From an uncultured Candidatus Saccharibacteria bacterium (lineage in GTDB: Bacteria; Patescibacteriota; Minisyncoccia; Phycocordibacterales; JACOZG01), in contig CAYNPK010000003.1 of assembly GCA_964399075.1 (NCBI GenBank), positions 6,306 through 70,305 of the forward strand: 64,000 nt of DNA, read 5' to 3'. Positions 1,346 through 54,313 of this stretch are shown here, piece after piece (the stretch's first letter is position 1; the number at the start of each line of letters is the position of its first letter). Below the pieces are notes generated by a model. The model was not told where the DNA came from and ran no database searches. It saw only the letters and a program-made list of their open reading frames with translations. Both the position numbers and the translations under genes were made by a program.

Positions 1346-2698
1346 TTACCAAGCGAAGGGCCTGCAGACCTGACTCTTGAGAGCCGAGAAACGCAGGCGG
1401 ACTGTCCGGCGACGAGGTGACAACTCCTTAACGGAGAGCGGTCTCGGCTGGCCAGTACAGACCAACTCCGCAACTTCCGGTGGCAATATCTCCGTCGGTA
1501 GAAGCGCAATGAGCTCATTCTCATCAATCGCCGTCCGCAAACGCTGACGGCGATCTGACTCTCTATTGCCCTGTTGCCATCGTCTTGCTTCCCTTGCCTT
1601 AAGCATTCCTCCCAAGGTTCTTCCGTAAATCTTCTTCAGGAGAGCGATAACCGGGCTCGTCACTGCCAACATACGGTGGGTCCGGGCCAGTTTCGCCAAC
1701 CAGTCGATTGCATAAAACAAGCAACAGAAAGCAATCGTCACTCCGTGGATCAAGACGATCAAGAGTGATAAGGCGCCGGCAATAGCCAGACTCTCCCACC
1801 ACAATTGCCGAGGTGAACAGAAGTTTTCAACAAACCATTTCACCTCACCTTCCTTGACGAACCCCCGAGTAAACCAGAAGACACAACCGATCAGGAAGAT
1901 TCCAGCAGGGAAAGCCGGGATCAGGGGCCAATAAGCTGGGTATCTTTCCTCTCTTTTCTCTCGATGAGTCCAGGACTCTTTCTTCCGGTAAAGGAAGAAG
2001 CTATCCTCCCAGTCAAGATAGCTCGTGGGCAAACCATCTCTGCACAGCCAATCGATCCGACTCCAGCGCAGGCCCAGAAGAAGTGCGACGAGGAGGTGCG
2101 CCAGATAGGCAAACCCCCAGAAAATCGCCATCGGCAAGGCGAAGATCGCTCGTCGCCGGAACTGACATTGATCCACTGGCGGCGTTTCGCACCACCAATT
2201 GACCAAACGCCAGACCCAGCTAGCCGGCTTCTTGGCGAAGAGGCCTTCCGGCACCTCCACACCCACCGAGCCAGTGGCAAAACCATCCACGAAATTGGCT
2301 CGAAATTCTCCAGAGTGATCGTAAAGGAGGTAATTGTACTCCCGAAACTGACGCTTCGTGAGCAAATCATTTTCTCGATCAGGAGAACAATTCCGGACGA
2401 TCGTGGCATGGATAATGTTCAGGCCCGGGCGATGGAATTGGACATGAGCCAAGCCATCCTGCAAAGGAACCAGTTGCCGACTGGTTTCCTCCTTACCGTT
2501 CTGGACGGAAATCAGGAGACGGTCCAGATACCAACTGCCGCGCGTCAAATCTCGTCCAACCAAACCCAAAGCCGCCACCTTGGACAGGCACCAAGCTACC
2601 GTCACGGTAGCTGATTCTGCCACCTCCGACTTGACGGACAGGATGAGCTCCTGTTGATCGTCCTTGATTCTCTCCAATTCCCGCAGAGTCGTAATCAT
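1346..2698 (-). CDS. Hypothetical polytopic membrane protein (450 aa) encoded by anomalously high-GC DNA (about 58-63%)
   Basis: Long ORF with a soluble N-terminal region, several hydrophobic helices and a basic C-terminus; no family recognised; GC about 60-63% on sampled 60-nt lines versus about 42% nearby. Confidence 0.55.
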   Translation of the reverse strand: MITTLRELERIKDDQQELILSVKSEVAESATVTVAWCLSKVAALGLVGRDLTRGSWYLDRLLISVQNGKEETSRQLVPLQDGLAHVQFHRPGLNIIHATIVRNCSPDRENDLLTKRQFREYNYLLYDHSGEFRANFVDGFATGSVGVEVPEGLFAKKPASWVWRLVNWWCETPPVDQCQFRRRAIFALPMAIFWGFAYLAHLLVALLLGLRWSRIDWLCRDGLPTSYLDWEDSFFLYRKKESWTHREKREERYPAYWPLIPAFPAGIFLIGCVFWFTRGFVKEGEVKWFVENFCSPRQLWWESLAIAGALSLLIVLIHGVTIAFCCLFYAIDWLAKLARTHRMLAVTSPVIALLKKIYGRTLGGMLKAREARRWQQGNRESDRRQRLRTAIDENELIALLPTEILPPEVAELVCTGQPRPLSVKELSPRRRTVRLRFSALKSQVCRPFAW

Positions 2699-32481: not shown

Positions 32482-32521
32482 ATTAGGGATTAGGGATTAG
32501 GGATTAGGGATTAGGGATTAG
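32482..32521. repeat. Heptanucleotide microsatellite (ATTAGGG) x5 plus a partial copy
   Basis: cattagggattagggattagggattagggattagggattag read directly from the sequence; located between the acidic ORF and the four-helix-bundle gene. Confidence 0.9.
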
Positions 32522-37564: not shown

Positions 37565-38874
37565 ACAAAAATCTGACAATCATTAGTATTATTGCTTTAA
37601 TTTTAATTCTAAGTGGCTTCTTTGCCATCCGTCTCCTTGGATCACCGGCTGAATTGTGGTCTCTGTTGCAAAAAACTATTACTAGAGCTCCAGAACAAAC
37701 TACTGTTCCGGAAGAAGCGCCACTGCCTAATAGATTTTTCCCAACCGGCGATCCGCGGGTCATTGTGCCACCAGCGCCAATAGATATTCCTGATGGTACC
37801 GACGGAGAACCCTTGCCTATTCCGCAATTAGATAACCGCTTTCGGCAAATTTCAAGCCAGCCGGTAGTTAATGTCGTCCAAGTTGGCGATGGCGCCACCA
37901 GTCAAATTATTTATCTGGACAAAGCAACCGGCCACCTCTACTCGGTGGGGGAAATGGGGCTTGCTAAACGCCTTTCTAACACCACTATCCCTAAAGTCTT
38001 AGAATTAGTTGCCGGTCAAAGTGGAGAACAATTACGCTTGATTGCTCGCTATCTAAAAGATGGCCGACTACAAAACTTTTCTGGCACACTACGAACACAA
38101 ACTAAAACTGAAGTAGAGACGGAAACAGAAATAGAGACAGAAGAACCGGGAGAAGTAGAAGGAATTCTCTTAACTTCAACCATGTCACAAGTAGCTGTTT
38201 CTCCTCAACAAGATAAAATTTTCTATTTGAACCAATCCGGAGACGGAACCACCGGTATTCTGGCCAATTTTGATGATACTGATCGTCAAACCATCTTCAC
38301 CCACCCACTTACAGAGTGGCAACTTGATTGGCCAAGTAACTCAACTGTAGCGATCACCACCAAACCAAGTTCGCAACTCCCGGGCCTACTCTATGTGGTA
38401 GATCTACAAACCAAAAATCTAAGGCGTCTGATTGGAGAAGTGCCCGGCTTGTCAGCCAAAGTAAGCCCTGACGGGTCTAAAGTGCTCTACAGTGGTAGTA
38501 GTAGCGCCACTGGCCCATTTATTGCCCTCTACGACATTAAACAAGATCTCATTGACAGGCTTCCTAATAGAACCCTAGCTGATAAATGCACCTGGTCTAA
38601 GGATAATATAACCATCTACTGTGGTATTCCCAAAACACTGCCAGCTAATGATTACCCGGAAGATTGGTACAGTGGCGAAGTCTCTTTCAGTGACAACTTA
38701 TGGAAAATTAATACTCAAACCGGTAGCGGTGAAATTATTTTTAATCCAGAACTTAGTGGCAGTGGAGAAATCGACGCGGTTAATCTAACCCCCGACAAGA
38801 CTGAAGGTGCTTTATATTTAATAAACAAAAGAGACGCTACTTTGTGGGAACTAGATCTCCAGTCAACTTTTTAG
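37561..38874 (+). CDS. Secreted or membrane-anchored beta-propeller-like protein (437 aa)
   Basis: N-terminal TM/signal segment, Pro-rich linker, acidic TETEVETETEIETEEPGE tract, TolB-like repeats (SPDGSKVLYSGSS; LTPDKTEGALYLINKRD). Confidence 0.45.
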   Translation: MNKNLTIISIIALILILSGFFAIRLLGSPAELWSLLQKTITRAPEQTTVPEEAPLPNRFFPTGDPRVIVPPAPIDIPDGTDGEPLPIPQLDNRFRQISSQPVVNVVQVGDGATSQIIYLDKATGHLYSVGEMGLAKRLSNTTIPKVLELVAGQSGEQLRLIARYLKDGRLQNFSGTLRTQTKTEVETETEIETEEPGEVEGILLTSTMSQVAVSPQQDKIFYLNQSGDGTTGILANFDDTDRQTIFTHPLTEWQLDWPSNSTVAITTKPSSQLPGLLYVVDLQTKNLRRLIGEVPGLSAKVSPDGSKVLYSGSSSATGPFIALYDIKQDLIDRLPNRTLADKCTWSKDNITIYCGIPKTLPANDYPEDWYSGEVSFSDNLWKINTQTGSGEIIFNPELSGSGEIDAVNLTPDKTEGALYLINKRDATLWELDLQSTF

Positions 38875-39577
38875 CCCTAGATCTGACAAATAACTCGTGA
38901 ACAATAGAAAACAAGTTGCCCACTAGCCAATAAATGGGCACCGCTGCTGGTAAACCAATAGAAAATAACATAATCATCACTGGCAAAATATAACGCATTT
39001 GAACTTGCATACTGCGCGCTAAATCTTCTTTTAAAGACGGGGTAGCATTAGGCAACTTTTTAGCCAGAGGTGGCATAGAAAAACTTATTTGGAAATACTG
39101 AGTAAACCCGACTAAAATAGCAATCAACCAACTACGCTCACTGACATCTAAGCCAAGTAAAATAGTATTAACCTGCTCCGGAGCAGAAATGAAAGAGTAA
39201 ATTAAATCGGGATCAAAACTGAAACTGCCACGAAAAACCATAAGCAAGGCCCAGAGAATAGGCAACTGAATCAGCAACAACAAGAAGCCACTGAAGGGGT
39301 TTACCCCATGCTGGCGATATAGAGCCATAATTTGGCGAGCCTGTTCGGCTTGGTCAGTTTTATATTTATCTTTTAGGCTTTTGATCTCTCCATCTAACTC
39401 CCTGATCTTATGTTGAGTACGCGACATTTTGTGCTGTAGGGGAAAAAGAGCTAAACGCACCAAGAGAGTTAAAATAATAATCGCCAAGCCAATATTTTGA
39501 CCAGGAACAATAGCACTTAACCAAGCCAGGGCGTTATATAGAGGTTCAAAAAACAAATTATTAAAAAGAAATTTCAT
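38837..39577 (-). CDS. yidC: Membrane protein insertase YidC (short form)
   Basis: 246 aa; IIILTLLVRLALFPLQHKMSR conserved YidC TM2 region; gene order rpmH-rnpA-yidC. Confidence 0.85.
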   Translation of the reverse strand: MKFLFNNLFFEPLYNALAWLSAIVPGQNIGLAIIILTLLVRLALFPLQHKMSRTQHKIRELDGEIKSLKDKYKTDQAEQARQIMALYRQHGVNPFSGFLLLLIQLPILWALLMVFRGSFSFDPDLIYSFISAPEQVNTILLGLDVSERSWLIAILVGFTQYFQISFSMPPLAKKLPNATPSLKEDLARSMQVQMRYILPVMIMLFSIGLPAAVPIYWLVGNLFSIVHELFVRSRAKKLTGDLVPTK

Positions 39578-39587
39578 TTGTTATTTG

Positions 39588-39932
39588 TTATGTATTTAAC
39601 ATTTTAGCTTTTTGGAGTAAAAACACCAATTGTTTCTCGCATTCAACAAAAGAAACAGTTGACCAAGTTGGATCGAGAAAAACCACGGCTCTAAAATTGG
39701 GTTTTAATTGCTGTCTTAATTTGATTAAAATCGCCCGAGCACGACGCTTAATAAAGTTGCGCGTAACCGCTTTTTTAACCTTTTTGGCTGAAATCACTAG
39801 GGCTATTTGGGTTGGTCCACTAGGTTTTCTGGGAATAATACGAGCAACTAGGGGAGGAGAGCTAATGACGTGACCGGAACGCAAAACCAAAGACAATAAT
39901 TCTTTATTTAAGCGATTTGGATGTGGCAACAT
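39588..39932 (-). CDS. rnpA: Ribonuclease P protein component
   Basis: 114 aa basic protein with VTRNFIKRRARAIL (RNR motif) located between rpmH and yidC. Confidence 0.8.
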   Translation of the reverse strand: MLPHPNRLNKELLSLVLRSGHVISSPPLVARIIPRKPSGPTQIALVISAKKVKKAVTRNFIKRRARAILIKLRQQLKPNFRAVVFLDPTWSTVSFVECEKQLVFLLQKAKMLNT

Positions 39933-39940
39933 GAACGGCG

Positions 39941-40075
39941 CTAAACCGTCAATTTTTTCCGGCCTTTGCGCCGACGCGAGCGAACCACCTTACGGCCAGC
40001 CGTTGTTTTGCTACGAGTTAAAAAACCATGAGTTTTAGCCCTCTTGCGTTTTTTTGGCTGATAAGTTACAGACAT
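39941..40075 (-). CDS. rpmH: 50S ribosomal protein L34 (not in the ORF track because it is under 60 aa)
   Basis: Reverse-complement translation [44 protein letters not shown] matches the L34 consensus. Confidence 0.85.
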
Positions 40076-40186
40076 TTCACGAGTATAACTTAAAAATCAA
40101 TTGAGGGCAAATCTTAAGTAATCCACTGATTATTCACAGTATTGACTAGATAGCGGAAAGCTAAAGAGAAGCATATAATAATCCTA

Positions 40187-41551
40187 ATGTTAGAAAACAA
40201 AGAACTATGGGAGCGTGCTCTAGTAGATATTGAAATAAATACTTCTAAGGCCAACTTTGGCACCTGGTTTAAAAATACTCAAATCACTAAACAAGACAAC
40301 GGAACCGTCTATATTGGTGTGCCAAATACTTTCGTGAAAGACTGGCTTTTGAATAAATTCCACAAACTTATCTTGAAGTCATTACGAGATTTAGATCCAG
40401 AGGTTAGAGCCATAGAATATGTGGTGATAAAAAACGAAGACTTGAATAAAAATCAAGTATTTAGGCCCGAACACAAGCATGGAATCGACAGTCAGTTGAA
40501 TTTACCAGAGCTCTATATCAACCGCGAAGACAACCTTAATCCCAAATACGTCTTCGAAACTTTCATTGTTGGACCATTTAACGAACTTGCTCACGCCGCC
40601 AGTCAAGCGGTACTCAACAAAATTGGGGCAATTTATAACCCACTTTTTATTTACGGCGGAACTGGTTTGGGTAAAACCCACCTAATTCAAGCCGTTGGCA
40701 ACCATGTCAAAGAGCGTTTCCCAGGAAAAAAAGTGTTTTATGTCACCTCTGAACAATTTGTTATTGATTATGTCAATTCAGTCCAAAACAACCGCGGTAA
40801 CGGCAATCAATTTAAAGAAAAATATCGCAAATATGATGTTTTAATCATGGATGATGTCCAATTCTTTTCTAACAAAGACAGAACCCAGGAAGAATTATTC
40901 CATTTGTTTAATAATTTTTACGAAAACAATAAGCAAATTATCTTTTCTTCTGATAAAGCGCCAAAATATATCTCAAACCTAGAAGAACGCCTCCGTTCGC
41001 GCTTCGAGGGGGGGATGATCGTCGATGTAGCTAAACCAGACTATGAATCACGACTAGCAATCTTAAATAGTAAGACCAAGGGCCACCCCTTCCGTCCCGA
41101 ACCAGAGATATTAGAGTACGTAGCAAATGTTATTCAAGACAACATTCGCGAGCTAGAGGGAGCTCTAAACTCTATCATTTGCCAATCCGAACTAAAAAAC
41201 CGCAATCTAACCTTCCAAGAGATTAAAACGTTAGTTAAAAACAACATCAAACCAAAGCGCCTGGTTTCAATTAAAGGAGTGGCTAATGTAATAGCTAATT
41301 TCTACAACATTCATGAGAAAACCCTCTACGACAAAACTCGAAAAAAAGAAGTGGTGAAACCAAGACAAGTAATGATGTACTTATTACGAGAAGATTTCAG
41401 CACCTCTTACCCTTATATCGGACAAAAAATGGGTGGTCGAGATCACACCACAGTAATCCACGCTTACGAAAAAATAAAACACGATCTAAAGGACGATACG
41501 ATGTTGTCACAAGAGGTCGAGCAAATTCGTGCTATGTTGTATAATGAGTGA
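40187..41551 (+). CDS. dnaA: Chromosomal replication initiator DnaA
   Basis: 454 aa; AAA+ Walker A GGTGLGKTHL, Walker B LIMDDVQF, C-terminal DNA-binding domain (HTTV signature). Confidence 0.9.
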   Translation: MLENKELWERALVDIEINTSKANFGTWFKNTQITKQDNGTVYIGVPNTFVKDWLLNKFHKLILKSLRDLDPEVRAIEYVVIKNEDLNKNQVFRPEHKHGIDSQLNLPELYINREDNLNPKYVFETFIVGPFNELAHAASQAVLNKIGAIYNPLFIYGGTGLGKTHLIQAVGNHVKERFPGKKVFYVTSEQFVIDYVNSVQNNRGNGNQFKEKYRKYDVLIMDDVQFFSNKDRTQEELFHLFNNFYENNKQIIFSSDKAPKYISNLEERLRSRFEGGMIVDVAKPDYESRLAILNSKTKGHPFRPEPEILEYVANVIQDNIRELEGALNSIICQSELKNRNLTFQEIKTLVKNNIKPKRLVSIKGVANVIANFYNIHEKTLYDKTRKKEVVKPRQVMMYLLREDFSTSYPYIGQKMGGRDHTTVIHAYEKIKHDLKDDTMLSQEVEQIRAMLYNE

Positions 41552-41757
41552 ATAAGGTGGGGATGAAGTGGTGGATAAATAGGGAACTAGAGAGATCAAA
41601 AAACTTAAAGATGTTTTTCAAAAAAAATAAAACCAACATATCCACAAGTTTATCCAGAAATAATTTTTACAAAAAGCTTGAGATGATAACCTCCAGAGAA
41701 CTTATCACCACTATCCCCAGACCTAATAGTATTAGTAATTTATAATCTTAATCTATT
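41552..41757. other. Probable oriC (DnaA-box cluster plus an AT-rich unwinding stretch) in the dnaA-dnaN spacer
   Basis: Boxes matching TTATCCACA at 8/9 positions: gtggataaa, atatccacaa, tttatccaga, plus gataacc and ttatcacc; AT-rich tttttcaaaaaaaataaaacc; canonical location. Confidence 0.6.
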
Positions 41758-42879
41758 ATGAGAGTTGAATACCTAAAAGATAAGTTGCGTTGGGCCATCA
41801 ATATTGCCGAAAAAATGACTGGTAAAAATTTGTCTTTACCAACCCTAGGACAAGTTATGCTTGAAGCCGATCAGCATGTCCTTAAGGTTAAAGCGACAAA
41901 TCTTGATGTGGGGGTGGAACTTCTTTTGCCTGCCAAGGTAGTGGAGATCGGCCGGGTGATGGTTGATGGTTCTGTTTTGAGTAATTTTTTAGCTAATCTT
42001 TATCGTGGGGAGAGGGTTGTTCTGGAAACAACTTCACAAAATCTGATTGTTTCTTCAGACAACACCTCATCGGTAATTAAAACTTATCCCATTGATGATT
42101 TTCCAGATATTCCACGACTAAATAATGATGACAATTATTCTGTCACCATCTCTTCTTCGCAGTTAGTTTCTGGTCTTAAATCTGTTTCTTACGCTGCCTC
42201 TCTTTCAGATATTAAGCCAGAAATTGCCAGTATTTATCTCTATCAAGATCAGGGGAGTGGTGATTTGGTTTTTGTGAGCACTGACTCATTTCGTTTGGCG
42301 GAAAAAAGGCTTAATCTTGGCGTTGATAACCAGTCAGCCAAACCACCCTCTTTGATTATTCCTGCCAGGAATGTGGTTGAGATAATTCGGGCTATGGATG
42401 GGCTGGATGAGTTGGTTAAGGTGTCTTGGGATGGTAATCAGGTAGCTTTTGTGACTGATAAGATTTATCTTGTTTCTCGGTTAGTGGGTGGAACCTTTCC
42501 TGATTATCGCCAAATTATGCCAACCAACAATCAAACTAAGGCGATTATGACCAAGACTGATCTGTTGAATACTTTGAAGTTGTCTAATATTTTTGCTGAT
42601 AAATTAAACCAAGTTCATCTTAAGATTGCCGTCAAAGATAATTTGTTTGAAATAAACTCTCGTCATGGCGATGTTGGTGAGAATACAACCAAACTCTCGG
42701 CTACTTTAAGTGGTGAGGATGTAGAAATTGGTTTCAATATTCGCTATCTTCTTGATTGTTTCCAGTCAATTAATACTGAAAAAGTGTCCCTGTCTTTTAA
42801 TAGCCACAACAGACCAATTGTCGTCGCTGGAGTCGGTGACTCTTCTTTTACTTATTTGATTATGCCACTTAATCGTTAA
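41758..42879 (+). CDS. dnaN: DNA polymerase III beta sliding clamp
   Basis: 373 aa; three-domain beta-clamp length and sequence pattern immediately after dnaA. Confidence 0.9.
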   Translation: MRVEYLKDKLRWAINIAEKMTGKNLSLPTLGQVMLEADQHVLKVKATNLDVGVELLLPAKVVEIGRVMVDGSVLSNFLANLYRGERVVLETTSQNLIVSSDNTSSVIKTYPIDDFPDIPRLNNDDNYSVTISSSQLVSGLKSVSYAASLSDIKPEIASIYLYQDQGSGDLVFVSTDSFRLAEKRLNLGVDNQSAKPPSLIIPARNVVEIIRAMDGLDELVKVSWDGNQVAFVTDKIYLVSRLVGGTFPDYRQIMPTNNQTKAIMTKTDLLNTLKLSNIFADKLNQVHLKIAVKDNLFEINSRHGDVGENTTKLSATLSGEDVEIGFNIRYLLDCFQSINTEKVSLSFNSHNRPIVVAGVGDSSFTYLIMPLNR

Positions 42880-49875: not shown

Positions 49876-50133
49876 GTTCTTAACTATAATATCATATCTA
49901 GCACGACTTTCAGAAAAAGCTATCTTGACCAGACTTTTATTTTGTATTTATTTGACAAATTTTTGTTAATTAATTTTTGCCATTAAACAATCGAGAGTAT
50001 TTTTCATTTATATTATTTTTTACTCTTCCAAGTGGTTCCAAGCTATTGAACCATTGCGCCCACTTGACAAAATAAGTAGACTATGCCAAGCTATATAGTG
50101 TTCAAAGTGATAGAGAGGGATAGTAAGAAGGAC

Positions 50134-50162
50134 TTGACAAGAGAGGTCAAAAGGTATATACT
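50134..50162 (+). promoter_or_regulatory. Consensus sigma70-type promoter (TTGACA-17-TATACT) reading into the high-GC island
   Basis: gacTTGACAagagaggtcaaaaggtaTATACTg; about 200 nt upstream of the island's first ATG (50362). Confidence 0.5.
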
Positions 50163-50361
50163 GTATGGAGTTACTGAAGTTTGGCCAGGACTTTGACAAT
50201 CGAATAGGATGAAGAGGTAAAAATAGAGAAATCTATTGTTATTCCTCAACGTCTGAATAAGAGATAGCGTAAAAACCTTAACCTTGTTCAGATTTGAGGG
50301 ATCGCAATGTTTGCGGTTCTTGGTTCCCGCCAACCGATGGCGAAGTGGCAAGGAGAGCAAC

Positions 50362-50934
50362 ATGAAAAAGATTGTTCTCGCCGGGCCGCCTCGGTCTGGC
50401 AAGAGCTGTGTGCGCGAAGGGCTGAAGCAGGCCATTCGCGCGATTCCCGGCAACGCGGTGTATCCGTATGTGATCACCGCTTGCCCCGACGGCGAAGGTT
50501 CGTGGTTCCAGGAAACTGTGAACAACGACCCAGAGCTGGCGGCGGCGTGCAAGGCGGCCTACAAGGCCAAGTTCACGCCGGAGTTCGTGAAGCGGGTTGC
50601 GGACTCCGTCCGCAATTGCTCGCTCGAGCTGACTCTCGTGGACATTGGAGGTATCACCTCCGTTGAAAACGAGGAGATCTGCAGTTCGGCGACGCACATT
50701 GTCATTCTCGCGAGCGACATGAGCAATGTCGCCGAGTGGCAGGAGTTTGCTCGGAAGGTCGGGCTCACTGTGGTGGCCGAGATTCACTCGGATTACCACG
50801 GCACGGAAGATGGCGTCGAGGGCGTTGGTCCCGACGGTATCCTTCGCGGGTCGGTTCACCACCTCGAACGAGGTGAAGTAGTGGCCGACCGTCCGATGAT
50901 CAAAGCTCTCGCAGACCATTTGCTGGCGATTTAA
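50362..50934 (+). CDS. P-loop NTPase of unrecognised family (190 aa), first gene of the high-GC island
   Basis: RBS aaggaga 7 nt upstream; Walker A KIVLAGPPRSGKSC, Walker B-like LELTLVDIGG; GC3-rich codon usage. Confidence 0.6.
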   Translation: MKKIVLAGPPRSGKSCVREGLKQAIRAIPGNAVYPYVITACPDGEGSWFQETVNNDPELAAACKAAYKAKFTPEFVKRVADSVRNCSLELTLVDIGGITSVENEEICSSATHIVILASDMSNVAEWQEFARKVGLTVVAEIHSDYHGTEDGVEGVGPDGILRGSVHHLERGEVVADRPMIKALADHLLAI

Positions 50935-51079
50935 TTCGCCAGGGTTGTGAGTCAGCCAAAAACTCTCATGGGAAACTGGAGAAGCCCATCTAATTCTTCT
51001 CCTCTCTGTTGAGTTCTTGAGAAGGTCTTGAGAACTCATTGAGAGGTTTGGGACCACTTGAAAAAGAAAGGAGTGTCCC

Positions 51080-51385
51080 ATGTCCACGTACAACATCAGC
51101 CTGACCGATGGCGTGCTCAAGGTGGGGTTCGGGGCTCCGGCCCAGAACGATCAGATCGTGAAGGATGCGGAGACGCGCCTCGACGAGATGATCTCCACCG
51201 GCGAGCTCGCGGGCGGTGACGTGATCCGGGTCAACGGCCCGGCCTCGCTCCCGGTCGCGATGGTGATCGCCCACAAGGTGGCGCACCTGTACGGCGCGGT
51301 GGCGTGCTTCGACCCCAAGCTGTCGAAGTACGTCGTGGCGATCAGCCACGACCCCGCCTACGTCGTGGGCGACCTGATCGACTAA
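51080..51385 (+). CDS. Hypothetical 101-aa protein, candidate partner of the P-loop NTPase
   Basis: RBS aaaggag 7 nt upstream of the ATG; high-GC codon usage; sequence MSTYNISLTDGVLKVGFGAPAQNDQIV...GGDVIRVNGPASLPVAMVIAHKV; no family recognised. Confidence 0.55.
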   Translation: MSTYNISLTDGVLKVGFGAPAQNDQIVKDAETRLDEMISTGELAGGDVIRVNGPASLPVAMVIAHKVAHLYGAVACFDPKLSKYVVAISHDPAYVVGDLID

Positions 51386-51895
51386 GTCGATCAGAAAAAT
51401 TCAGCAGTTCTTGTTACCGTTCTCTGTGGCAAAAGAATGGTAAGTCGGCAACGGCAGTGTTGCAAACATGGAAGAACAGAGCCTAAAAATTTTGTTCTTC
51501 CCCTTATTCAATTCATCACGTGTTGTGGTGAGTTGATTGGGAAAACGATTGAAAAAAGAAAAAAGAAAGGAGGCCAGCTCGACAAAGAACGTCGGGACGA
51601 TGGATATTGCAAACCTCGTTCCGAAGGGTGACGGGAACGCCGAGCTTGATTCGGCGATTCTGGAGGCCCAAAGGGCTTGCGCCGCTTACCGCGCAACGCA
51701 GGCGCAGGTGCAAGACTGGCGCAATCAGCCGGTCTATCCGTATTAGAAAGGAGGTTAGAGTTTGCTGAAAGATTCTCATCAAAAATCTTTCCCTTTTTAA
51801 GTTCATGAGCGATGTAGTTCGTGGACTTATTGGGATTTCACGCCCACGGGAACGGCTAAGGCCAAATCCCACGGGCAAGAATGGAGGAAAGTATA

Positions 51896-52657
51896 ATGCA
51901 GAATATTGAATGGTCGGATCAGATCGGTTCCCGCGGTCGGGGTGCGTGGCTCCTGTTCGTTAAAGGTGATGAGATCATTCCGTTCAGCGGAATGGATATC
52001 CCTGGCGTGGTTGTGGTCCGAGGAACGGACTACACCAAGAACGGTAAGTGGTCGCACACCACCTACCGGCTTCAGGTCGCGGACAGCGTGCGGCACATCG
52101 CCGGGCGCAACGGCTGGGAAACTGGCCGGTTCGTGGAAGGCCTCGGCTCTGCCGTTGGCTGTGCCACGCCCGACACGTGGGCGGACACAGCCAGTGCGCT
52201 CGGGGTTTCGGTGCCGAGCACGATGGAGTTCCTGCGGGCGTGGCGGCCAGGGGCCGCGGAGAAGTTGGATGAGGTCGAAGAGTCGTTGGCGAAACTGGAG
52301 GAAGTTTCCGAGCAGGAAACTGACTCCGTGATCGTCACCGTCTCGTTCGGCTCGCCGACCAACCGCGCCATCCGCGAGGGATACTGGGAGTGGCCAAAGG
52401 GCATCCCGGGATACGCCGCGGAGATCCGACTGAAGGATTCCGACAAGGGCTGGAGCGAGGGCAACATCACGGTCGTCGGAATCTCCGGCACCGTTCTCTC
52501 GGTCAAGCACTCGGCTGGTATGCACGGCGGTTACTACGCCGTGTCGGTCGCAGTTCTTCCAGGAACGGAGACCGAGATCCCGCCCTTCGAGACCGCCCAG
52601 GAAGTCGCCGAACCGCGGTTCGGCACTTGCTTGGGCGACTTGCTCAAGCGAGGATGA
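51896..52657 (+). CDS. Hypothetical 253-aa protein within the island (the track ORF starts 15 nt earlier)
   Basis: ggagga RBS 7 nt upstream of the second ATG; high-GC codon usage; no family recognised; followed by a strong terminator. Confidence 0.5.
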   Translation: MQNIEWSDQIGSRGRGAWLLFVKGDEIIPFSGMDIPGVVVVRGTDYTKNGKWSHTTYRLQVADSVRHIAGRNGWETGRFVEGLGSAVGCATPDTWADTASALGVSVPSTMEFLRAWRPGAAEKLDEVEESLAKLEEVSEQETDSVIVTVSFGSPTNRAIREGYWEWPKGIPGYAAEIRLKDSDKGWSEGNITVVGISGTVLSVKHSAGMHGGYYAVSVAVLPGTETEIPPFETAQEVAEPRFGTCLGDLLKRG

Positions 52658-52677
52658 AGAAGATGAAGTAGTTCTTT

Positions 52678-52733
52678 AGGAGGAGGGCGAGAGAGAATCG
52701 AAAAACGATCTCTCGTTCTCCTCCTCCTTTTTG
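52678..52733 (+). terminator. Rho-independent terminator
   Basis: Long GC-rich hairpin aggaggagggcgagagagaatcg-aaaaa-cgatctctcgttctcctcctcc followed by ttttt. Confidence 0.65.
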
Positions 52734-52804
52734 AAATCATCAGCGCGTTGCTGGTGGTTTCATTGGGAGAAGTTGTGAGTCAAATCTTTTTTGGAGGAAA
52801 AATC

Positions 52805-53008
52805 ATGAAGAGTTCTTTGACAGTTCTGTGTCTGTTTCTGCTGGTCGTGGGATTGCTCCTGACCACTAGCACCGGATGCGACCTGGTGATCCAGGCCGGT
52901 GGCGGTGGGGGTGGGTACCCGGTCGTGTACGACTATGGGTACTACGAGCCGGCCGTGGTCTACGACTACAGTTGGTACGACTACGGCTACTACGACTACT
53001 GGTGGTGA
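52805..53008 (+). CDS. Small Tyr/Trp/Asp-rich lipoprotein (67 aa)
   Basis: ggagga RBS; signal peptide with lipobox LTTSTGC; mature part GGGGGGYPVVYDYGYYEPAVVYDYSWYDYGYYDYWW. Confidence 0.5.
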   Translation: MKSSLTVLCLFLLVVGLLLTTSTGCDLVIQAGGGGGGYPVVYDYGYYEPAVVYDYSWYDYGYYDYWW

Positions 53009-53052
53009 CGAGGGGACTCGAGGGGACTTTCGTTCCCAGAAAGGAAACTACG

Positions 53053-53223
53053 ATGAAAAAGATTTCTTTTCTGATCGTGATGGTGCTGGTGGCGATCACT
53101 ACTGGTTGCGATTGGGAGTTCCGACCTGGTGGCCGTGTGTACGAGTCGATCCCTGTCATTTACAATGATGGGAACTACAACTGGTACAATTACGGCTATG
53201 GTTGGTACGTCACGGAGTACTGA
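53053..53223 (+). CDS. Small Tyr/Asn/Trp-rich lipoprotein paralog (56 aa)
   Basis: Signal peptide with lipobox AITTGC; mature part rich in N/Y/W (NDGNYNWYNYGYGWYVTEY); preceded by the same hairpin-plus-RBS motif as the next gene. Confidence 0.45.
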   Translation: MKKISFLIVMVLVAITTGCDWEFRPGGRVYESIPVIYNDGNYNWYNYGYGWYVTEY

Positions 53224-53262
53224 CGTGATGAGGGGACTTTCGTCCCCAGAAAGGAGAATGAG

Positions 53263-53802
53263 ATGAAAACGCTCACTTCTTTGGTGATTGTGGCGATGAT
53301 TCTGGGAACGGCTTCGACGGCTTCGGCTGGTGAGAGAAGCCACCGCCATCGGCCGGTCTTCGTTCGCTCGGCACCGGTGGTGCGGGTAGTCCGCCCTCCC
53401 GTGGTGGTGCATCGGCGCCCGGTCTACAGACCGATGCCGGTGTACTACGCCCCTCCGCCGATGGTGCGGGTGGTCCGTCCGGTGCCGGTGGTTTACCACC
53501 ATCGGCCTACCACCTTAGAGGGAGTGGCTGGCATCGTTGGCGTTGCTCTTGGTGGTGCGGCGGACATTGTCGCCGTTAGCCGTCAGAGCTCGCCGACGAT
53601 GATCGCGCCCATGCCCCTGCCGGCACCCCCTCCGCCCTATCAGGTGGAGGCGCCACCTGCTGGGTTCGTTGAGACCGGTCGGCGCTACCACAAACATGGT
53701 GGTGACACTGGCCGTCTCGACTACATCAAGGGATGGCTCAATGGGAGGGAGGTCAAGGTCGAATACAACGACTTTGGCCAGATTGAAGAGATTGATGACT
53801 AG
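53263..53802 (+). CDS. Secreted Pro/Val/Arg-rich repeat protein (179 aa)
   Basis: Signal peptide MKTLTSLVIVAMILGTASTASA; PVVRVVRP-type repeats (RPVFVRSAPVVRVVRPPVVVHRRPVYRPMPVYY...MVRVVRPVPVVY); C-terminal globular part. Confidence 0.5.
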   Translation: MKTLTSLVIVAMILGTASTASAGERSHRHRPVFVRSAPVVRVVRPPVVVHRRPVYRPMPVYYAPPPMVRVVRPVPVVYHHRPTTLEGVAGIVGVALGGAADIVAVSRQSSPTMIAPMPLPAPPPPYQVEAPPAGFVETGRRYHKHGGDTGRLDYIKGWLNGREVKVEYNDFGQIEEIDD

Positions 53803-53826
53803 TGAGCCGGGAGGTCTCGCTGTCAC

Positions 53827-53867
53827 ACACGCGCCTACTGCTTTCGAGCGGTGGGCGTGTTTTTTTG
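53827..53867 (+). terminator. Rho-independent terminator closing the high-GC island
   Basis: Hairpin cacgcgcc-(loop)-ggtgggcgtg followed by ttttttt; low-GC tsaE begins 15 nt later. Confidence 0.6.
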
Positions 53868-53881
53868 CTAAAATAATTTAG

Positions 53882-54313
53882 ATGAAGACTTTAAGTCACA
53901 ATGAACAAGAAACTCTTGGAGTGGTTAAGACTCTTCTTGGCTCTCTGAAGCCGGATTCTTCTTCTGCTACAATCTTAGGCTTAATTGGTGATCTAGGATC
54001 AGGTAAAACCACTTTTACTCAACTTCTGGCTCAAGAATTGGGAGTGACCGAGTCGGTTACTAGTCCGACTTTTGTGTTGGAGAAAATTTATCCTCTAAGT
54101 AATCAGGCTTTTAATCGTCTTGTTCACATTGATGCTTATCGATTGGATAAATCGGAAGAATTATCGCAACTTGGTTGGGATCAATTGATTCGCGATAAGG
54201 GTAATTTAATTGTGGTTGAGTGGGCTGACCGGGTGGCCTCAATTCTTCCGTCTCGTCATCTTAAAATACATTTTCGCTTTATTGATTTAACCACGCGTGA
54301 AATCTCATGGTAA
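53882..54313 (+). CDS. tsaE: tRNA threonylcarbamoyladenosine biosynthesis protein TsaE (YjeE)
   Basis: 143 aa; P-loop GDLGSGKTTFTQ, SPTFVL motif; TsaE length. Confidence 0.8.
   Translation: MKTLSHNEQETLGVVKTLLGSLKPDSSSATILGLIGDLGSGKTTFTQLLAQELGVTESVTSPTFVLEKIYPLSNQAFNRLVHIDAYRLDKSEELSQLGWDQLIRDKGNLIVVEWADRVASILPSRHLKIHFRFIDLTTREISW

Follow-up and report, generated by a model that had tools for sequence, protein, structure and literature searches.

A GC-rich island in a Saccharibacteria contig with a putative NTPase-Csx3/Crn3 cassette behind a structured leader RNA

The 64-kb stretch of DNA analysed here, referred to as the window, contains a genuine GC-rich island at positions 50284-53867. 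Judged by sequence, the CRISPR-associated Csx3-AAA protein is represented here by two adjacent, separately encoded genes, g1 and g2, one for each half. Many ultra-small Patescibacteria carry a cassette with such a predicted CRISPR-type signal-degrading enzyme, and no CRISPR system was seen in its vicinity. In the explanation that we consider, as a whole, fairly likely, two transcription units, A and B, both with foreign, GC-ending codon usage, make up a mosaic island, and unit A reached this lineage as a cassette from a donor pool richer in GC, probably other Patescibacteria and not an actinobacterial host. The features are listed in Table 1.

Table 1. Features of the island and its borders, with positions in the window.
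Feature	Position	Strand	Remarks
Sigma-70-like promoter, predicted	50134..50162	+	TTGACA-17-TATACT; 11/12 positions matched; consensus match alone
Structured 5′ leader RNA, hairpins P0, P1, P2	50239..50364	+	covariance model, covariation, folding
g1, 190-aa P-loop NTPase, putative 'AAA' half of Csx3-AAA	50362..50934	+	
g2, 101-aa Csx3/Crn3 (ring-nuclease family) homologue	51080..51385	+	Pfam, PADLOC, residue alignment
g3, candidate 48-aa ORF	51600..51746	+	GC-rich patch flanked by low-GC spacers
g4, 253-aa member of a conserved family	51896..52657	+	
Intrinsic terminator after g4	52678..52735	+	17-bp stem + U5; inverted repeat I7
g5, 67-aa predicted lipoprotein (…LLLTTSTGC)	52805..53008	+	Tyr/Gly-rich, 12 Tyr
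Duplicated 69-nt segment	53020..53088; copy 53230-53298	+	repeat family D3, 74% identity
g6, 56-aa predicted lipoprotein (…VAITTGC), Tyr-rich	53053..53223	+	resembles g5
g7, 179-aa secreted protein	53263..53802	+	signal peptide, Pro/Val/Arg-rich spacer, conserved C-terminal domain
Intrinsic terminator, island end	53829..53867	+	14-bp stem + U7

Composition and boundaries of the island

The GC content is 0.573 in the island as compared to 0.423 across the remaining window, and no other 3.6-kb segment of the 64 kb scanned exceeds 0.49. The original prediction of 60-67% GC holds for the gene bodies (0.57-0.66, with the exception of g6 at 0.48), whereas the mean over the island is lower; its two line counts, 0.667 for 51121-51180 and 0.45 for 54001-54060, were exact. 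The island likewise stands out in tetranucleotide usage, with an L1 distance of 0.55 versus 0.18±0.027 for non-island windows, and in codon usage, since the GC3 of its genes (0.65-0.94) lies far above that of 54 background ORFs (0.395±0.068, maximum 0.616). As had been described for six of them, the island genes are all on the plus strand and have Shine-Dalgarno sequences, which are of the AGGAG type.

The island is located between pilB and tsaE, approximately 9 kb from dnaA/dnaN. The predicted promoter lies in host-like AT-rich DNA (GC 0.36 over the 486 nt 5′ of g1) and would give rise to a 5′-UTR of ~190 nt; the region comprises 4 promoter-like sites versus 1.8±1.2 in shuffled sequences. The terminator at the island end (53829-53860 followed by U7; -30.3 kcal/mol, z -2.9) is positioned 15 nt upstream of the tsaE start (53882). 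Both boundaries originally proposed are retained. A second strong terminator after g4 (-32 kcal/mol, z -4.5, equalled in 0/200 shuffles) closes unit A and thereby splits the island into two units. Their codon usage is similar (r 0.68) and differs from that of the host (-0.28 for A and -0.13 for B). The searches of the island revealed neither an integrase or transposase nor a neighbouring tRNA or CRISPR array. Since no mobility gene, direct repeat at the flanks or tRNA points to a mechanism of insertion, this weighs against acquisition; regarding integrase, transposase and repeats, the original reading is confirmed.

The NTPase-Csx3 pair and its leader RNA

Searches with g1 against Pfam and NCBIfam matched nothing beyond the P-loop, whereas the PADLOC profile Csx3-AAA was matched with an E value of 4e-58. 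The protein contains the motifs GPPRSGKS (Walker A) and VDIGG, and its predicted fold is of the SIMIBI class (MinD/ParA/NifH/GPN-loop-like). The g2 product matches positions 1-99 of the same PADLOC profile (E 6.8e-31) as well as Pfam PF09620 (Cas_csx3; 26.8 bits, exceeding the gathering score of 21), with 22.9 bits against NCBIfam TIGR02579, which is below the equivalog cut-off of 55.4. With these matches, the view that the island holds no recognisable defence system is not supported.

In Archaeoglobus fulgidus Crn3/Csx3 (AF_1864; PDB 3WZI, 6YUD), the residues H57, H60, D69, R71 and H80 are needed for the Mn2+-dependent cleavage of cA4 (PMC7371418). The archaeal protein is of similar size (~110 aa), and the direct sequence match to g2 is weak (phmmer E 0.36). 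Nevertheless, the conserved AHKxAH, FDPK/R and SH motifs correspond: in the alignment to 6yud, H65/H69 of g2 align with H57/H60, D78 with D69, K80 with R71, and H90 with H80. Most of the catalytic residues of Csx3/Crn3 are thus kept, with H65, H69, D78 and K80 present in 18/19 aligned homologues, K80 being an invariant Lys in place of the archaeal Arg. Unlike the archaeal protein, g2 lacks a CRISPR context, and its activity is a prediction from sequence.

Two fused architectures are known, Csx3-AAA (cluster 35 of Shah et al. 2018, mainly cyanobacteria; PADLOC PDLC01045) and AAA-Csx3 (cluster 67, e.g. Chloroflexus Caur_2269; PDLC01059), and the literature gives the function of the 'AAA' part of Csx3-AAA as unknown. 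Both domains are homologous to g1 and g2 (E 4e-58 and 7e-31), and the gene order of the island, with the NTPase preceding Csx3, agrees with AAA-Csx3. The C-terminal NTPase part of a Nostoc plasmid Csx3-AAA is 48-52% identical to g1. In contrast to the fused proteins, g1 and g2 are separated by 145 nt, are preceded by a structured leader, are sometimes accompanied by the g4 family, and lie in loci labelled as Patescibacteria; moreover, the Nostoc gene resides in a type III CRISPR locus with RAMP, Csx19 and CARF genes, whereas near the island pair no type III CRISPR-Cas was seen. Despite the 'AAA' label, fold prediction assigns g1 to the SIMIBI class rather than to AAA+, although sequence-level membership in the SIMIBI families (MinD/ParA, NifH, BioD, GPN-loop GTPases) is lacking and the signature lysine of the deviant MinD/ParA motif KGGxxK is absent from its Walker A.

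Stand-alone ring nucleases of the AcrIII-1/Crn2 type are viral or plasmid-borne cOA degraders located away from CRISPR loci. By analogy, the island Csx3 may be compared to them, as a member of a cOA-degrading enzyme family encoded apart from CRISPR loci on horizontally moving DNA, but it belongs to the Csx3 fold family and not to DUF1874, has an NTPase as its neighbour, and resides on the chromosome of many cellular organisms.

The hairpins of the leader are followed by a Shine-Dalgarno sequence (AAGGAG, 50350-50355) and the ATG of g1. The original prediction placed the gene start at TTG 50284; it is corrected to ATG 50362, and the 78 nt in between are part of the conserved leader RNA. A covariance model trained on 6 loci, the window excluded, matches the window leader with 32.1 bits (E about 1e-6) and also detects three loci that had been set aside (L011, L015 and L012), in each case immediately upstream of the NTPase start. 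In the alignment of 10 sequences 90% of the cells are paired and 13/23 pairs show compensatory double changes, a level reached in 0/500 shuffles; the covariation score is 0.395 as compared to at most 0.131 in slid controls. The leader folds with a minimum free energy of -44.8 kcal/mol (z -4.9). No Rfam family matched at E<=10, and this version of the leader is present in only 10/22 distinct loci.

Taken together, unit A (50239-52735) comprises the structured leader, a P-loop NTPase of the dimerising type with a predicted SIMIBI fold and the Csx3/Crn3 homologue, joined in some genomes, including that of the window, by a g4-family protein. The Csx3 homologue may be a Mn2+-dependent enzyme that binds and cleaves a cA4-like oligoadenylate, either cyclic or short and linear, with the NTPase as its putative nucleotide-dependent partner or switch, the leader possibly controlling NTPase translation in cis, and g4 serving as a candidate accessory or output component.

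Further genes of the island

The g4 protein is a short isoform without the ~70-aa C-terminal domain present in most family members; its fold is predicted with confidence, yet matched no known fold. The candidate g3 (GC 0.59, GC3 0.67) had no homologue among the libraries, fetched loci and protein sets searched.

The content of unit B matches the two tiny Tyr-rich lipoproteins and the Pro/Val/Arg-rich secreted protein described before. The lipobox of g5 was judged by eye using a PROSITE-type rule, and the N-terminus of g6 weakly matches the lipoprotein family NF038215 (E 0.0028). Tyr-codon repeats inside g5 recur in g6 (repeat families D2 and D5); GC3 is 0.78 in g5 and 0.65 in g6. The 69-nt segment comprises a hairpin (GGGGACUUUCGUYCCC), a Shine-Dalgarno sequence and the start of a signal peptide, and the repeat pair indicates a local duplication within unit B; the hairpin energies (-11.8 to -13.8 kcal/mol) are not significant as compared to shuffles. 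The g7 protein ends in a domain of ~55 aa (P.GFVETGRRYH.HG.D.G..D…G.LNGR.V.I.Y…G.I.E.DD). Among 1.84 billion representatives 28 matches were obtained, mostly at residues 110-179, and the similarity to relatives (45-60% identity) is confined to the C-terminal 55-65 residues; Pfam, PADLOC, PHROG and the plasmid collection gave no match. We suggest that unit B (52805-53867) would represent lineage-specific envelope cargo of two similar Tyr-rich mini-lipoproteins and a secreted protein.

Distribution and origin of the cassette

The NTPase and Csx3 genes are adjacent in every fetched locus with room for both, in contigs labelled as Paceibacterota, Taylor-, Harrison-, Berkel-, Uhrbacteria and Saccharibacteria, and the pair comprises 963 homologue clusters. 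The flanking genes vary among distinct lineages and are not syntenic: the trio g1-g2-g4 is found in conserved order at three unrelated sites, namely in the window, next to parB (L051) and next to clpP (L052). Within the fetched loci the GC content of the pair usually exceeds that of the flanks (0.66/0.68 versus 0.37 in L025; 0.64/0.68 versus 0.44 in L027), as does that of the g4 homologue of L033 (0.64 versus 0.36), and the GC3 of g1 shows no correlation with the GC content of the host (rho 0.25, p 0.27). The original prediction had contrasted recent acquisition with an ancient syntenic high-GC locus; the outcome is intermediate, as many lineages possess the pair, usually with a high GC content, but at non-syntenic positions.

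In copies residing in low-GC hosts, synonymous GC-to-AT changes significantly exceed the reverse (12-15 versus 3-5 in the window, 15:2 in L003, 36:14 in L051 and 45:9 in L052), although these counts are small and polarised by parsimony on an unsupported NJ topology; in the control L012, from a 55%-GC host, both directions are balanced. The implied equilibrium GC3 is about 0.35-0.5, so these copies are not at equilibrium. Acquisition in the lineage of the window would be recent enough for the GC3 of unit A to persist at 0.72-0.94 (0.94 in g2). Amino-acid identity is 72-88% among the best 120 g1 matches, and no donor closer than 88% was found. Fourfold sites are near saturation for most orthologue pairs (mean identity 0.39 versus 0.30 expected), with the closest pair, the window and L012, at 0.64 versus 0.35. 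For a defence-type gene the conservation of g1 is unusually high, and would also fit a constrained housekeeping role.

We consider it unlikely that the core genes are ancient and vertically inherited, their high GC3 being kept by codon or mRNA selection or GC-biased gene conversion. The presence of the pair across many classes under very strong purifying selection, a GC3 of 0.7-0.98 despite near-saturated synonymous sites, the host-like spacers beside genes of extreme GC3, and the recurrence of a TrmB-family gene and a large GNAT-containing protein beside the pair in several lineages, hinting at some inherited context, would fit this view; yet almost every lineage has the pair at another genomic site, the NJ tree of g1 does not follow taxon labels, the GC-to-AT excess speaks against equilibrium, and some copies are fully host-like (GC3 0.41 in L021, host 0.38; 0.49 in L028, host 0.46). 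Quite unlikely is a recent origin of the whole island from a non-Patescibacteria donor of high GC content, e.g. the actinobacterial host of an episymbiont, with subsequent placement under a native promoter. The foreign composition, the alike codon usage of units A and B, the lack of g5-g7 homologues in any fetched Patescibacteria locus, and the only retrievable g7 relative, which has native composition on a 65%-GC contig beside GH28 and MGDG-synthase genes, would be in line with it. On the other hand, the closest relatives of g1, g2 and g4, hundreds at 57-88% identity, bear Patescibacteria names wherever the source names them; the nearest outgroup relatives are cyanobacterial Csx3-AAA proteins (30-52%, from the plasmid collection, the sole organism-recording set searched); the leader is common to other Patescibacteria loci; and, as g7 matches are limited to its C-terminus, no actual donor is identified. 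Composition and the GC-to-AT pattern therefore bear out the GC-richer source originally proposed, but not an actinobacterial donor of the core; for unit B, a high-GC source outside Patescibacteria is possible.

A role of unit A as an ordinary accessory, acting in trans for a type III CRISPR-Cas or other cOA-producing system elsewhere in the genome, appears very unlikely. Csx3/Crn3 and Csx3-AAA do act as type III accessories in cyanobacteria and archaea, and ring nucleases sometimes occur in effector-less loci (PMC12409355). However, CRISPR arrays were found neither in the 64-kb window nor in any Patescibacteria locus, and Cas families neither among the called genes of the window nor in the annotated loci, the screen extending over as much as 20 kb of DNA surrounding the pair in ~22 distinct loci (L011-L029 for arrays only); in addition, CRISPR-Cas is absent from most Patescibacteria (PMC12455944), and the homologue clusters of the pair are numerous. 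A chimeric assembly or bin, in which a foreign GC-rich fragment was joined into a 42%-GC contig, had been named as the alternative and is now extremely unlikely. The compositional step is sharp, and in two runs of lower coverage contigs are interrupted within the island or at its edge (L060 and L061 end at 52328 and 51579, respectively, and L002 begins at 53831 in the island terminator). These breaks fall within the island rather than at its borders, though, and L002 fuses the last 51 nt of the island to tsaE. Logan assemblies made separately for three runs agree at 100% identity over the left junction, from pilB to g1/g2; both junctions are covered by a single 33-kb Logan contig, which together with L002 also shows an identical right junction. 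Furthermore, the same cassette forms GC-rich islands in long low-GC contigs from unrelated samples.

Acquisition of unit A from other Patescibacteria, the reading favoured here, is reminiscent of aquifer Patescibacteria, where detected transfers are mostly between members of the group and enriched in defence functions (PMC12455944). The islands reported there are likewise compositionally deviant, whereas the present one is short (3.6 kb), is devoid of mobility genes and contains a specific cassette that recurs elsewhere. Phage and viral contigs yielded no homologue of g1, and the searchable literature gave nothing joining Csx3 with Patescibacteria and, for Csx3 with 'candidate phyla radiation', one paper that names them in separate contexts. 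Finally, the spacers within the island (145-214 nt) have a host-like GC of 0.42-0.46, which recent en-bloc transfer does not predict; in GC-richer hosts the spacers are also below the genes (0.48-0.60).

A separately encoded NTPase-Csx3 pair

The original prediction recognised no housekeeping, defence or mobile-element set in the GC-rich island at 50284-53867. However, the first two genes of the island encode a CRISPR-accessory pair. The P-loop NTPase g1 matches the P-loop half (positions 109-284, E 4e-58) of the PADLOC profile Csx3-AAA (PDLC01045, 286 positions), and g2 matches its Csx3 half (positions 1-99, E 7e-31). Against the PADLOC Csx3 profiles g2 gave E values of 7e-31 and 3e-18; it scored 26.8 bits with Pfam Cas_csx3 (PF09620; gathering score 21) and 22.9 bits with the TIGR02579 equivalog, the cut-off of which is 55.4. 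In the alignment with AfCsx3, for which catalytic roles of H57, H60, D69, R71 and H80 have been described (PMC7371418), g2 retains H57, H60, D69 and H80 as H65, H69, D78 and H90, and R71 is replaced by K80. Thus, four of the five catalytic or binding positions are identical and one shows a conservative change; the quartet H65, H69, D78 and K80 recurs in 18 of 19 homologues.

So far, Csx3/Crn3 and Csx3-AAA have been described solely as accessory proteins of type III CRISPR-Cas, and what the "AAA" half does is given as unknown in the literature. The Crn3/Csx3 ring nuclease is defined by Mn2+-dependent cleavage of cA4 to A2-P and by head-to-tail tetramerisation of dimers, and its usual context is a type III (or type I) CRISPR-Cas locus, which is absent near g2. 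No CRISPR array was found in the 64-kb window or in any fetched Patescibacteria locus (~22 distinct, with flanks of up to 10 kb), and no Cas family was seen among the called genes of the window and the annotated loci; this search covered loci rather than whole genomes, and L011-L029, which carry no gene annotation, were checked for arrays only. The nearest relatives outside Patescibacteria in the plasmid collection, the only searched collection that records organisms, are cyanobacterial Csx3-AAA fusions with 30-52% identity, and the Nostoc copy lies within a type III locus. Whereas Csx3-AAA and AAA-Csx3 fusions unite the Csx3 and P-loop domains in a single polypeptide, both domains are encoded here by two ORFs, each with its own Shine-Dalgarno sequence, across a gap of 145 nt (50935-51079), and they are separate genes in every fetched locus showing both. 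Unlike MinD/ParA, which possess the deviant Walker A motif KGGxxGK[ST] with its signature lysine, g1 contains GPPRSGKS; its likeness to SIMIBI-class NTPases is confined to the predicted fold. Sequence searches of the PDB with g1, single or profile, returned P-loop matches only, and comparison of g1, g3, g4, g5 and g7 with Pfam, NCBIfam and PHROGs yielded nothing beyond P-loop noise.

Homologues of g1 form 963 clusters, and the best 120 of these 963 are 72-88% identical. The species-representative MAGs with a g1 gene are labelled Paceibacterota, Taylor-, Harrison-, Berkel- and Uhrbacteria and Saccharibacteria, among others, and a few carry other labels (Micavibrio, Gammaproteobacteria, Omnitrophica). 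The Csx3 gene adjoins the NTPase gene in all fetched loci with room for it, usually in the order NTPase to Csx3 (reversed in L017, L023 and L026), and the genes flanking the pair vary between distinct lineages. The trio of NTPase, Csx3 and g4, the latter being a conserved-family protein, recurs in this order beside parB (L051) and beside clpP (L052-54); in the remaining 20 loci, a g4-family HMM detected no hidden homologue beside the pair. The housekeeping proteins of the window share 47-56% identity with counterparts on MAG contigs, most of which bear Patescibacteria labels; this is compatible with, but no proof of, membership of this group. In the searchable literature we found no paper combining Csx3 with Patescibacteria, and the one paper that names both Csx3 and "candidate phyla radiation" does so in passages unrelated to each other.

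The gene caller of the Logan record placed ORFs of 119 aa, wrong-frame or antisense, on top of g1 and g2, which accounts for the absence of the true proteins from the protein collection, where exact look-up retrieved neither sequence. GC-rich cassettes within genomes of low GC are easily mis-annotated in this way, and the NTPase-Csx3 family is thus probably under-annotated.

Positions of features in the window and in fetched loci (L numbers)
Feature	Locus	Positions	Remarks
g1, P-loop NTPase	window	50362-50934	190 aa; start ATG 50362, conserved MKK; Shine-Dalgarno AAGGAG at 50350-50355
g2, Csx3 homologue	window	51080-51385	101 aa
g3, possible ORF	window	51600-51746	48 aa
g4, conserved family	window	51896-52657	253 aa
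Hairpin and U-run closing unit A	window	52678-52735
Unit B	window	52805-53867	g5, g6: similar Tyr-rich mini-lipoprotein candidates; g7: Pro/Val/Arg-rich secreted protein
Promoter-like site	window	50134-50162
End-of-island terminator	window	53829-53867
Inverted repeat	window	50003-50019 / 53870-53886	17 nt, AT-rich
Leader	window	50239-50364
Leader	L003	9901-10003
Leader	L006	9903-10003
Leader	L011	6632-6743
Leader	L012	3707-3802
Leader	L015	7800-7927
Leader	L016	3806-3907
Leader	L017	8250-8350
Leader	L020	9887-10003
Leader	L051	4016-4118
Leader hairpin P0			10-13 bp, variable loop
Leader hairpin P1			UCGCA/UGCGA
Leader hairpin P2			CGCC-GGCCGAU-GGCG, then Shine-Dalgarno and ATG
Wrong-frame/antisense call	window	50307-50666 (+)	= L001 6426-6785
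Wrong-frame/antisense call	window	50990-51349 (-)	= L001 7109-7468
yidC, rnpA, rpmH, dnaA, dnaN	window	38837-42879
450-aa ORF	window	1346-2698 (-)
Tandem heptamer	window	32482-32521	ATTAGGG, 5.7 copies
TrmB/GNAT-protein neighbours	L008	6544-9133
TrmB/GNAT-protein neighbours	L019	1339-4826
TrmB/GNAT-protein neighbours	L025	5590-8840
TrmB/GNAT-protein neighbours	L045	7748-13108
TrmB/GNAT-protein neighbours	L013, L020, L026, L029, L039
~336-aa family	L030	5680-6690
~336-aa family	L032	1353-2402
~336-aa family	L033	1975-2988
NTPase paralogue	L020	11359-11883
NTPase paralogue	L028	5272-5688
tsaE, polA, holA homologues and pair	L017	544-8914	Saccharibacteria MAG
g4-N-domain protein	L049	9953-10600	215 aa; IMG/VR UViG_3300005264_000008
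80-nt tandem repeat	L008	17358-17685	Harrisonbacteria contig

A covarying leader and the possible role of the cassette

Aligning the regions upstream of g1 across several loci revealed a conserved segment of ~100 nt with three hairpins, P0, P1 and P2. A covariance model (R1) trained on six loci recovered the four leaders that had been held out (L011, 54.6 bits; L015, 51.7; L012, 43.7; the window, 32.1, E ~1e-6), and every match ended at the NTPase start codon. In the ten-sequence alignment, 90% of cells are paired, compensatory double changes occur in 13 of 23 pairs, and none of 500 shuffles reached the observed covariation (score 0.395 versus at most 0.131 for slid controls), these statistics being drawn from ten sequences only, six of which served for model building, with an alignment fitted to the model. 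The leader of the window folds with -44.8 kcal/mol (z -4.9). In L017, where Csx3 precedes the NTPase, the leader keeps its place immediately 5′ of the NTPase gene. It was found in only 10 of the 22 distinct loci, and R1 with filters switched off indicated none in L008, L013, L019, L022, L023, L026 and L029. A search of Rfam 15 gave no match at E<=10. Taken together, a covarying structure at a fixed position in the 5′-UTR marks the leader as a candidate for a new cis-regulatory RNA of Patescibacteria. A helix around P2 sequestering the Shine-Dalgarno sequence, which appeared in the minimum-free-energy fold of the window, was dropped because it is inconsistent across the alignment. The TTG at 50284, originally taken as the start of the first gene, gives way to the ATG of g1 with its conserved N-terminus and Shine-Dalgarno sequence; an ORF starting at 50284 would translate the leader.

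What is new is a pair that is split and equipped with its own leader, that has no CRISPR locus in its vicinity and that recurs among genomes bearing Patescibacteria labels. The halves of Csx3-AAA occur here as a very strongly conserved pair in hundreds of homologue clusters, those with names stemming from a group largely devoid of CRISPR according to the literature, and they come with a recurrent partner of unmatched fold. This raises the question of the job of a ring-nuclease-type enzyme without Cas10. In our reading, g2 would bind and cleave a cA4-like oligoadenylate with Mn2+, and g1 would be its nucleotide-dependent partner, a role that Shah et al. proposed for the fusion proteins. The leader would regulate translation of the NTPase, and g4 might be an accessory or output component.

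Two other readings may be considered. The pair may have a housekeeping role that involves RNA or nucleotides, with which the very strong purifying selection agrees. Alternatively, NTPase-Csx3(-g4) could be a CRISPR-independent module for oligoadenylate signalling or quenching, in which the leader acts as a new riboswitch-like sensor, with cA4, a linear product of it or some related nucleotide as ligand, and induces the signal-degrading enzyme; we regard this as improbable. If it were true, the module could blunt the cOA immunity of phage-infected or host cells in CRISPR-less episymbionts, or else run a new nucleotide second-messenger pathway with g4 as its output. The cassette offers a compact test system of three genes and one RNA for cA4 cleavage, NTPase coupling and ligand binding by the leader.

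Composition, boundaries and origin of the island

The compositional island is real: its GC content is 0.573 compared to 0.423 for the remainder of the window, where all other 3.6-kb windows remain at or below 0.49, and both GC3 and tetranucleotide distance concur. In 1-kb windows GC amounts to 0.52-0.60 between 50 and 54 kb versus ~0.42 elsewhere, with a peak of 0.69 in 200-nt windows. GC3 of the island genes is 0.65-0.94 (54 background ORFs, 0.395±0.068, maximum 0.616), and in tetranucleotide usage the island is 0.55 distant from the remaining sequence of the window (other windows, 0.18±0.027); composition and codon usage hence both deviate from the host genome. The two 60-nt line counts reported before are exact (0.667 and 0.45). 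The accompanying figure of 60-67% GC holds for the gene bodies but not for the island as a whole, the internal spacers of which (145-214 nt) are host-like with 0.42-0.46; the 486 nt 5′ of g1 have a GC content of 0.36. A second compositional outlier is a 450-aa ORF on the minus strand (GC 0.54; GC3 0.62, the top background gene) that lacks a Pfam domain, has a weak relative (32%) on the Saccharibacteria contig L017 and may be another acquired gene.

The promoter-like site matches the consensus at 11 of 12 positions, and the terminator bounding the island was confirmed. The island is composed of two transcription units: unit A extends from the leader to a hairpin with a U-run (-32 kcal/mol, z -4.5), and unit B follows. 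Neither tRNA, CRISPR array, integrase or transposase nor flanking direct repeats were found at or in the island. The sole bracketing feature is an inverted repeat with 88% complementarity, one arm of which lies 5′ of the promoter and the other at the start of tsaE; it is probably a chance occurrence in AT-rich DNA. The position of the yidC-dnaN gene set, together with the cumulative GC skew, which is low up to ~49 kb and rises steadily thereafter, puts ~9 kb between the island and the probable origin of replication.

An assembly chimera, raised as the alternative to acquisition, is unlikely. A 33-kb Logan contig (SRR11845629) is 100% identical to window positions 43882-64000 and covers both junctions. 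Contigs from SRR11845627 and SRR11845628, likewise 100% identical, run from dnaA/dnaN via pilB into the island and end at 52328 and 51579, and a third contig begins at 53831 within the terminator of the island and extends into tsaE and polA. Contigs thus break inside the island and not at its borders, which, together with the spanned junctions, makes a mis-join unlikely, judging from assembled contigs. No empty-site contig with pilB adjoining tsaE was recovered.

The pair is richer in GC than its flanks in most hosts (flanks versus NTPase/Csx3: L025, 0.37 vs 0.66/0.68; L019, 0.42 vs 0.63/0.69; L027, 0.44 vs 0.64/0.68; L026, 0.46 vs 0.62/0.67), and the same applies to g4 homologues. GC3 of g1 spans 0.41-0.86 with no correlation to host GC (rho 0.25). 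Some hosts labelled Patescibacteria reach 55-63% GC, and in L020 (0.63) the composition of the pair is near-native. The NJ tree of g1, computed without support values, mixes taxon labels, so that a patchy, non-syntenic spread is joined by disagreement between tree and taxonomy. Fourfold sites are near saturation in most orthologue comparisons (closest pair, 0.64 identity versus 0.35 expected at saturation), which excludes a single recent sweep; the best g1 relative has 88% amino-acid and 64% fourfold-site identity, and no donor was identified beyond this degree of relatedness.

The polarised substitution counts that bear on the cause of the GC excess are low, and the NJ topology underlying them lacks support values. 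Synonymous GC-to-AT versus AT-to-GC changes in the window amounted to 12:5, 13:5 or 15:3, depending on the outgroup, and in other low-GC hosts to 15:2 (L003), 36:14 (L051) and 45:9 (L052). In the 55%-GC host L012 they were balanced (7:12, 12:9, 11:9). The equilibrium GC3 implied for the low-GC hosts, ~0.35-0.5, lies far under the present values. This excess of GC-to-AT change and the elevated GC3 favour repeated uptake from a pool richer in GC, with subsequent amelioration, over selection for GC, a reading in which we have moderate confidence. It fits the report that most detected transfers in aquifer Patescibacteria occur between Patescibacteria (PMC12455944). The proposed horizontal origin thus stands as regards a foreign, GC-richer source, but for the core of the island this source is most likely other Patescibacteria rather than a high-GC, for example actinobacterial, host. 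The island exemplifies the GC-rich cassettes that low-GC genomes of Patescibacteria can carry.

Remaining island genes and recurrent neighbours

The possible ORF g3 coincides with a GC-rich patch and had no homologue in any library, fetched locus or protein set. Of g4, only the N-terminal domain was detected in viral sequences, at 30% identity on two contigs. A prophage origin of the island was rejected, as g1 has no match in IMG/VR or GenBank phages. One of the viral contigs, L049 (26% GC), is phage-like and encodes a protein sharing with g4 this domain and the motif DYTKNGKWS; a 538-aa large-terminase-like ORF and a GroES-like ORF lie nearby.

In unit B, g5 (…TSTGC) and g6 (…ITTGC) carry what we take to be a PROSITE-type lipobox, and g6 weakly matches a lipoprotein N-terminus in NCBIfam (E 0.0028). 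A 69-nt upstream segment is duplicated within the unit, indicating growth by local duplication. The secreted protein g7 has only 28 relatives among 1.84 billion representatives, all built alike from signal peptide, Pro-rich spacer and a C-terminal domain (~55 aa) that is conserved; g7 had no match in the plasmid collection and only three in the word-indexed search. The one relative with fetchable DNA resides on a 65%-GC contig, where its composition is native.

Two genes of native GC are repeatedly found beside the pair, one for a TrmB-family regulator and one for a 600-870-aa protein with a GNAT domain at its C-terminus; they may form a functional or regulatory partner set. In L045 they flank a g4 homologue, and neither was found in the window. 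Directly 3′ of g4 homologues we observed a GC-rich family of ~336 aa, 86-87% conserved and without Pfam domain, which suggests that the pool of conserved genes with high GC in these genomes is wider. A divergent NTPase paralogue (33-38% identity) is located 0.3-1.3 kb 3′ of the pair in two loci. In L017, homologues of tsaE, polA and holA (35-53% identical to those of the window) are located 1.5-7.4 kb 5′ of the Csx3-NTPase pair and loosely echo the order island-tsaE-polA-holA, which could be accidental or left over from a context once shared. In L008, a signal resembling CRISPR was traced to a perfect tandem repeat of 80 nt (4.1 copies, 98% identity) and not to an array; the repeat comes after a GC-rich block of MoxR-VWA genes, which is itself downstream of the pair. 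Finally, an intergenic gap of the window contains a perfect tandem heptamer that resembles telomere repeats in sequence.
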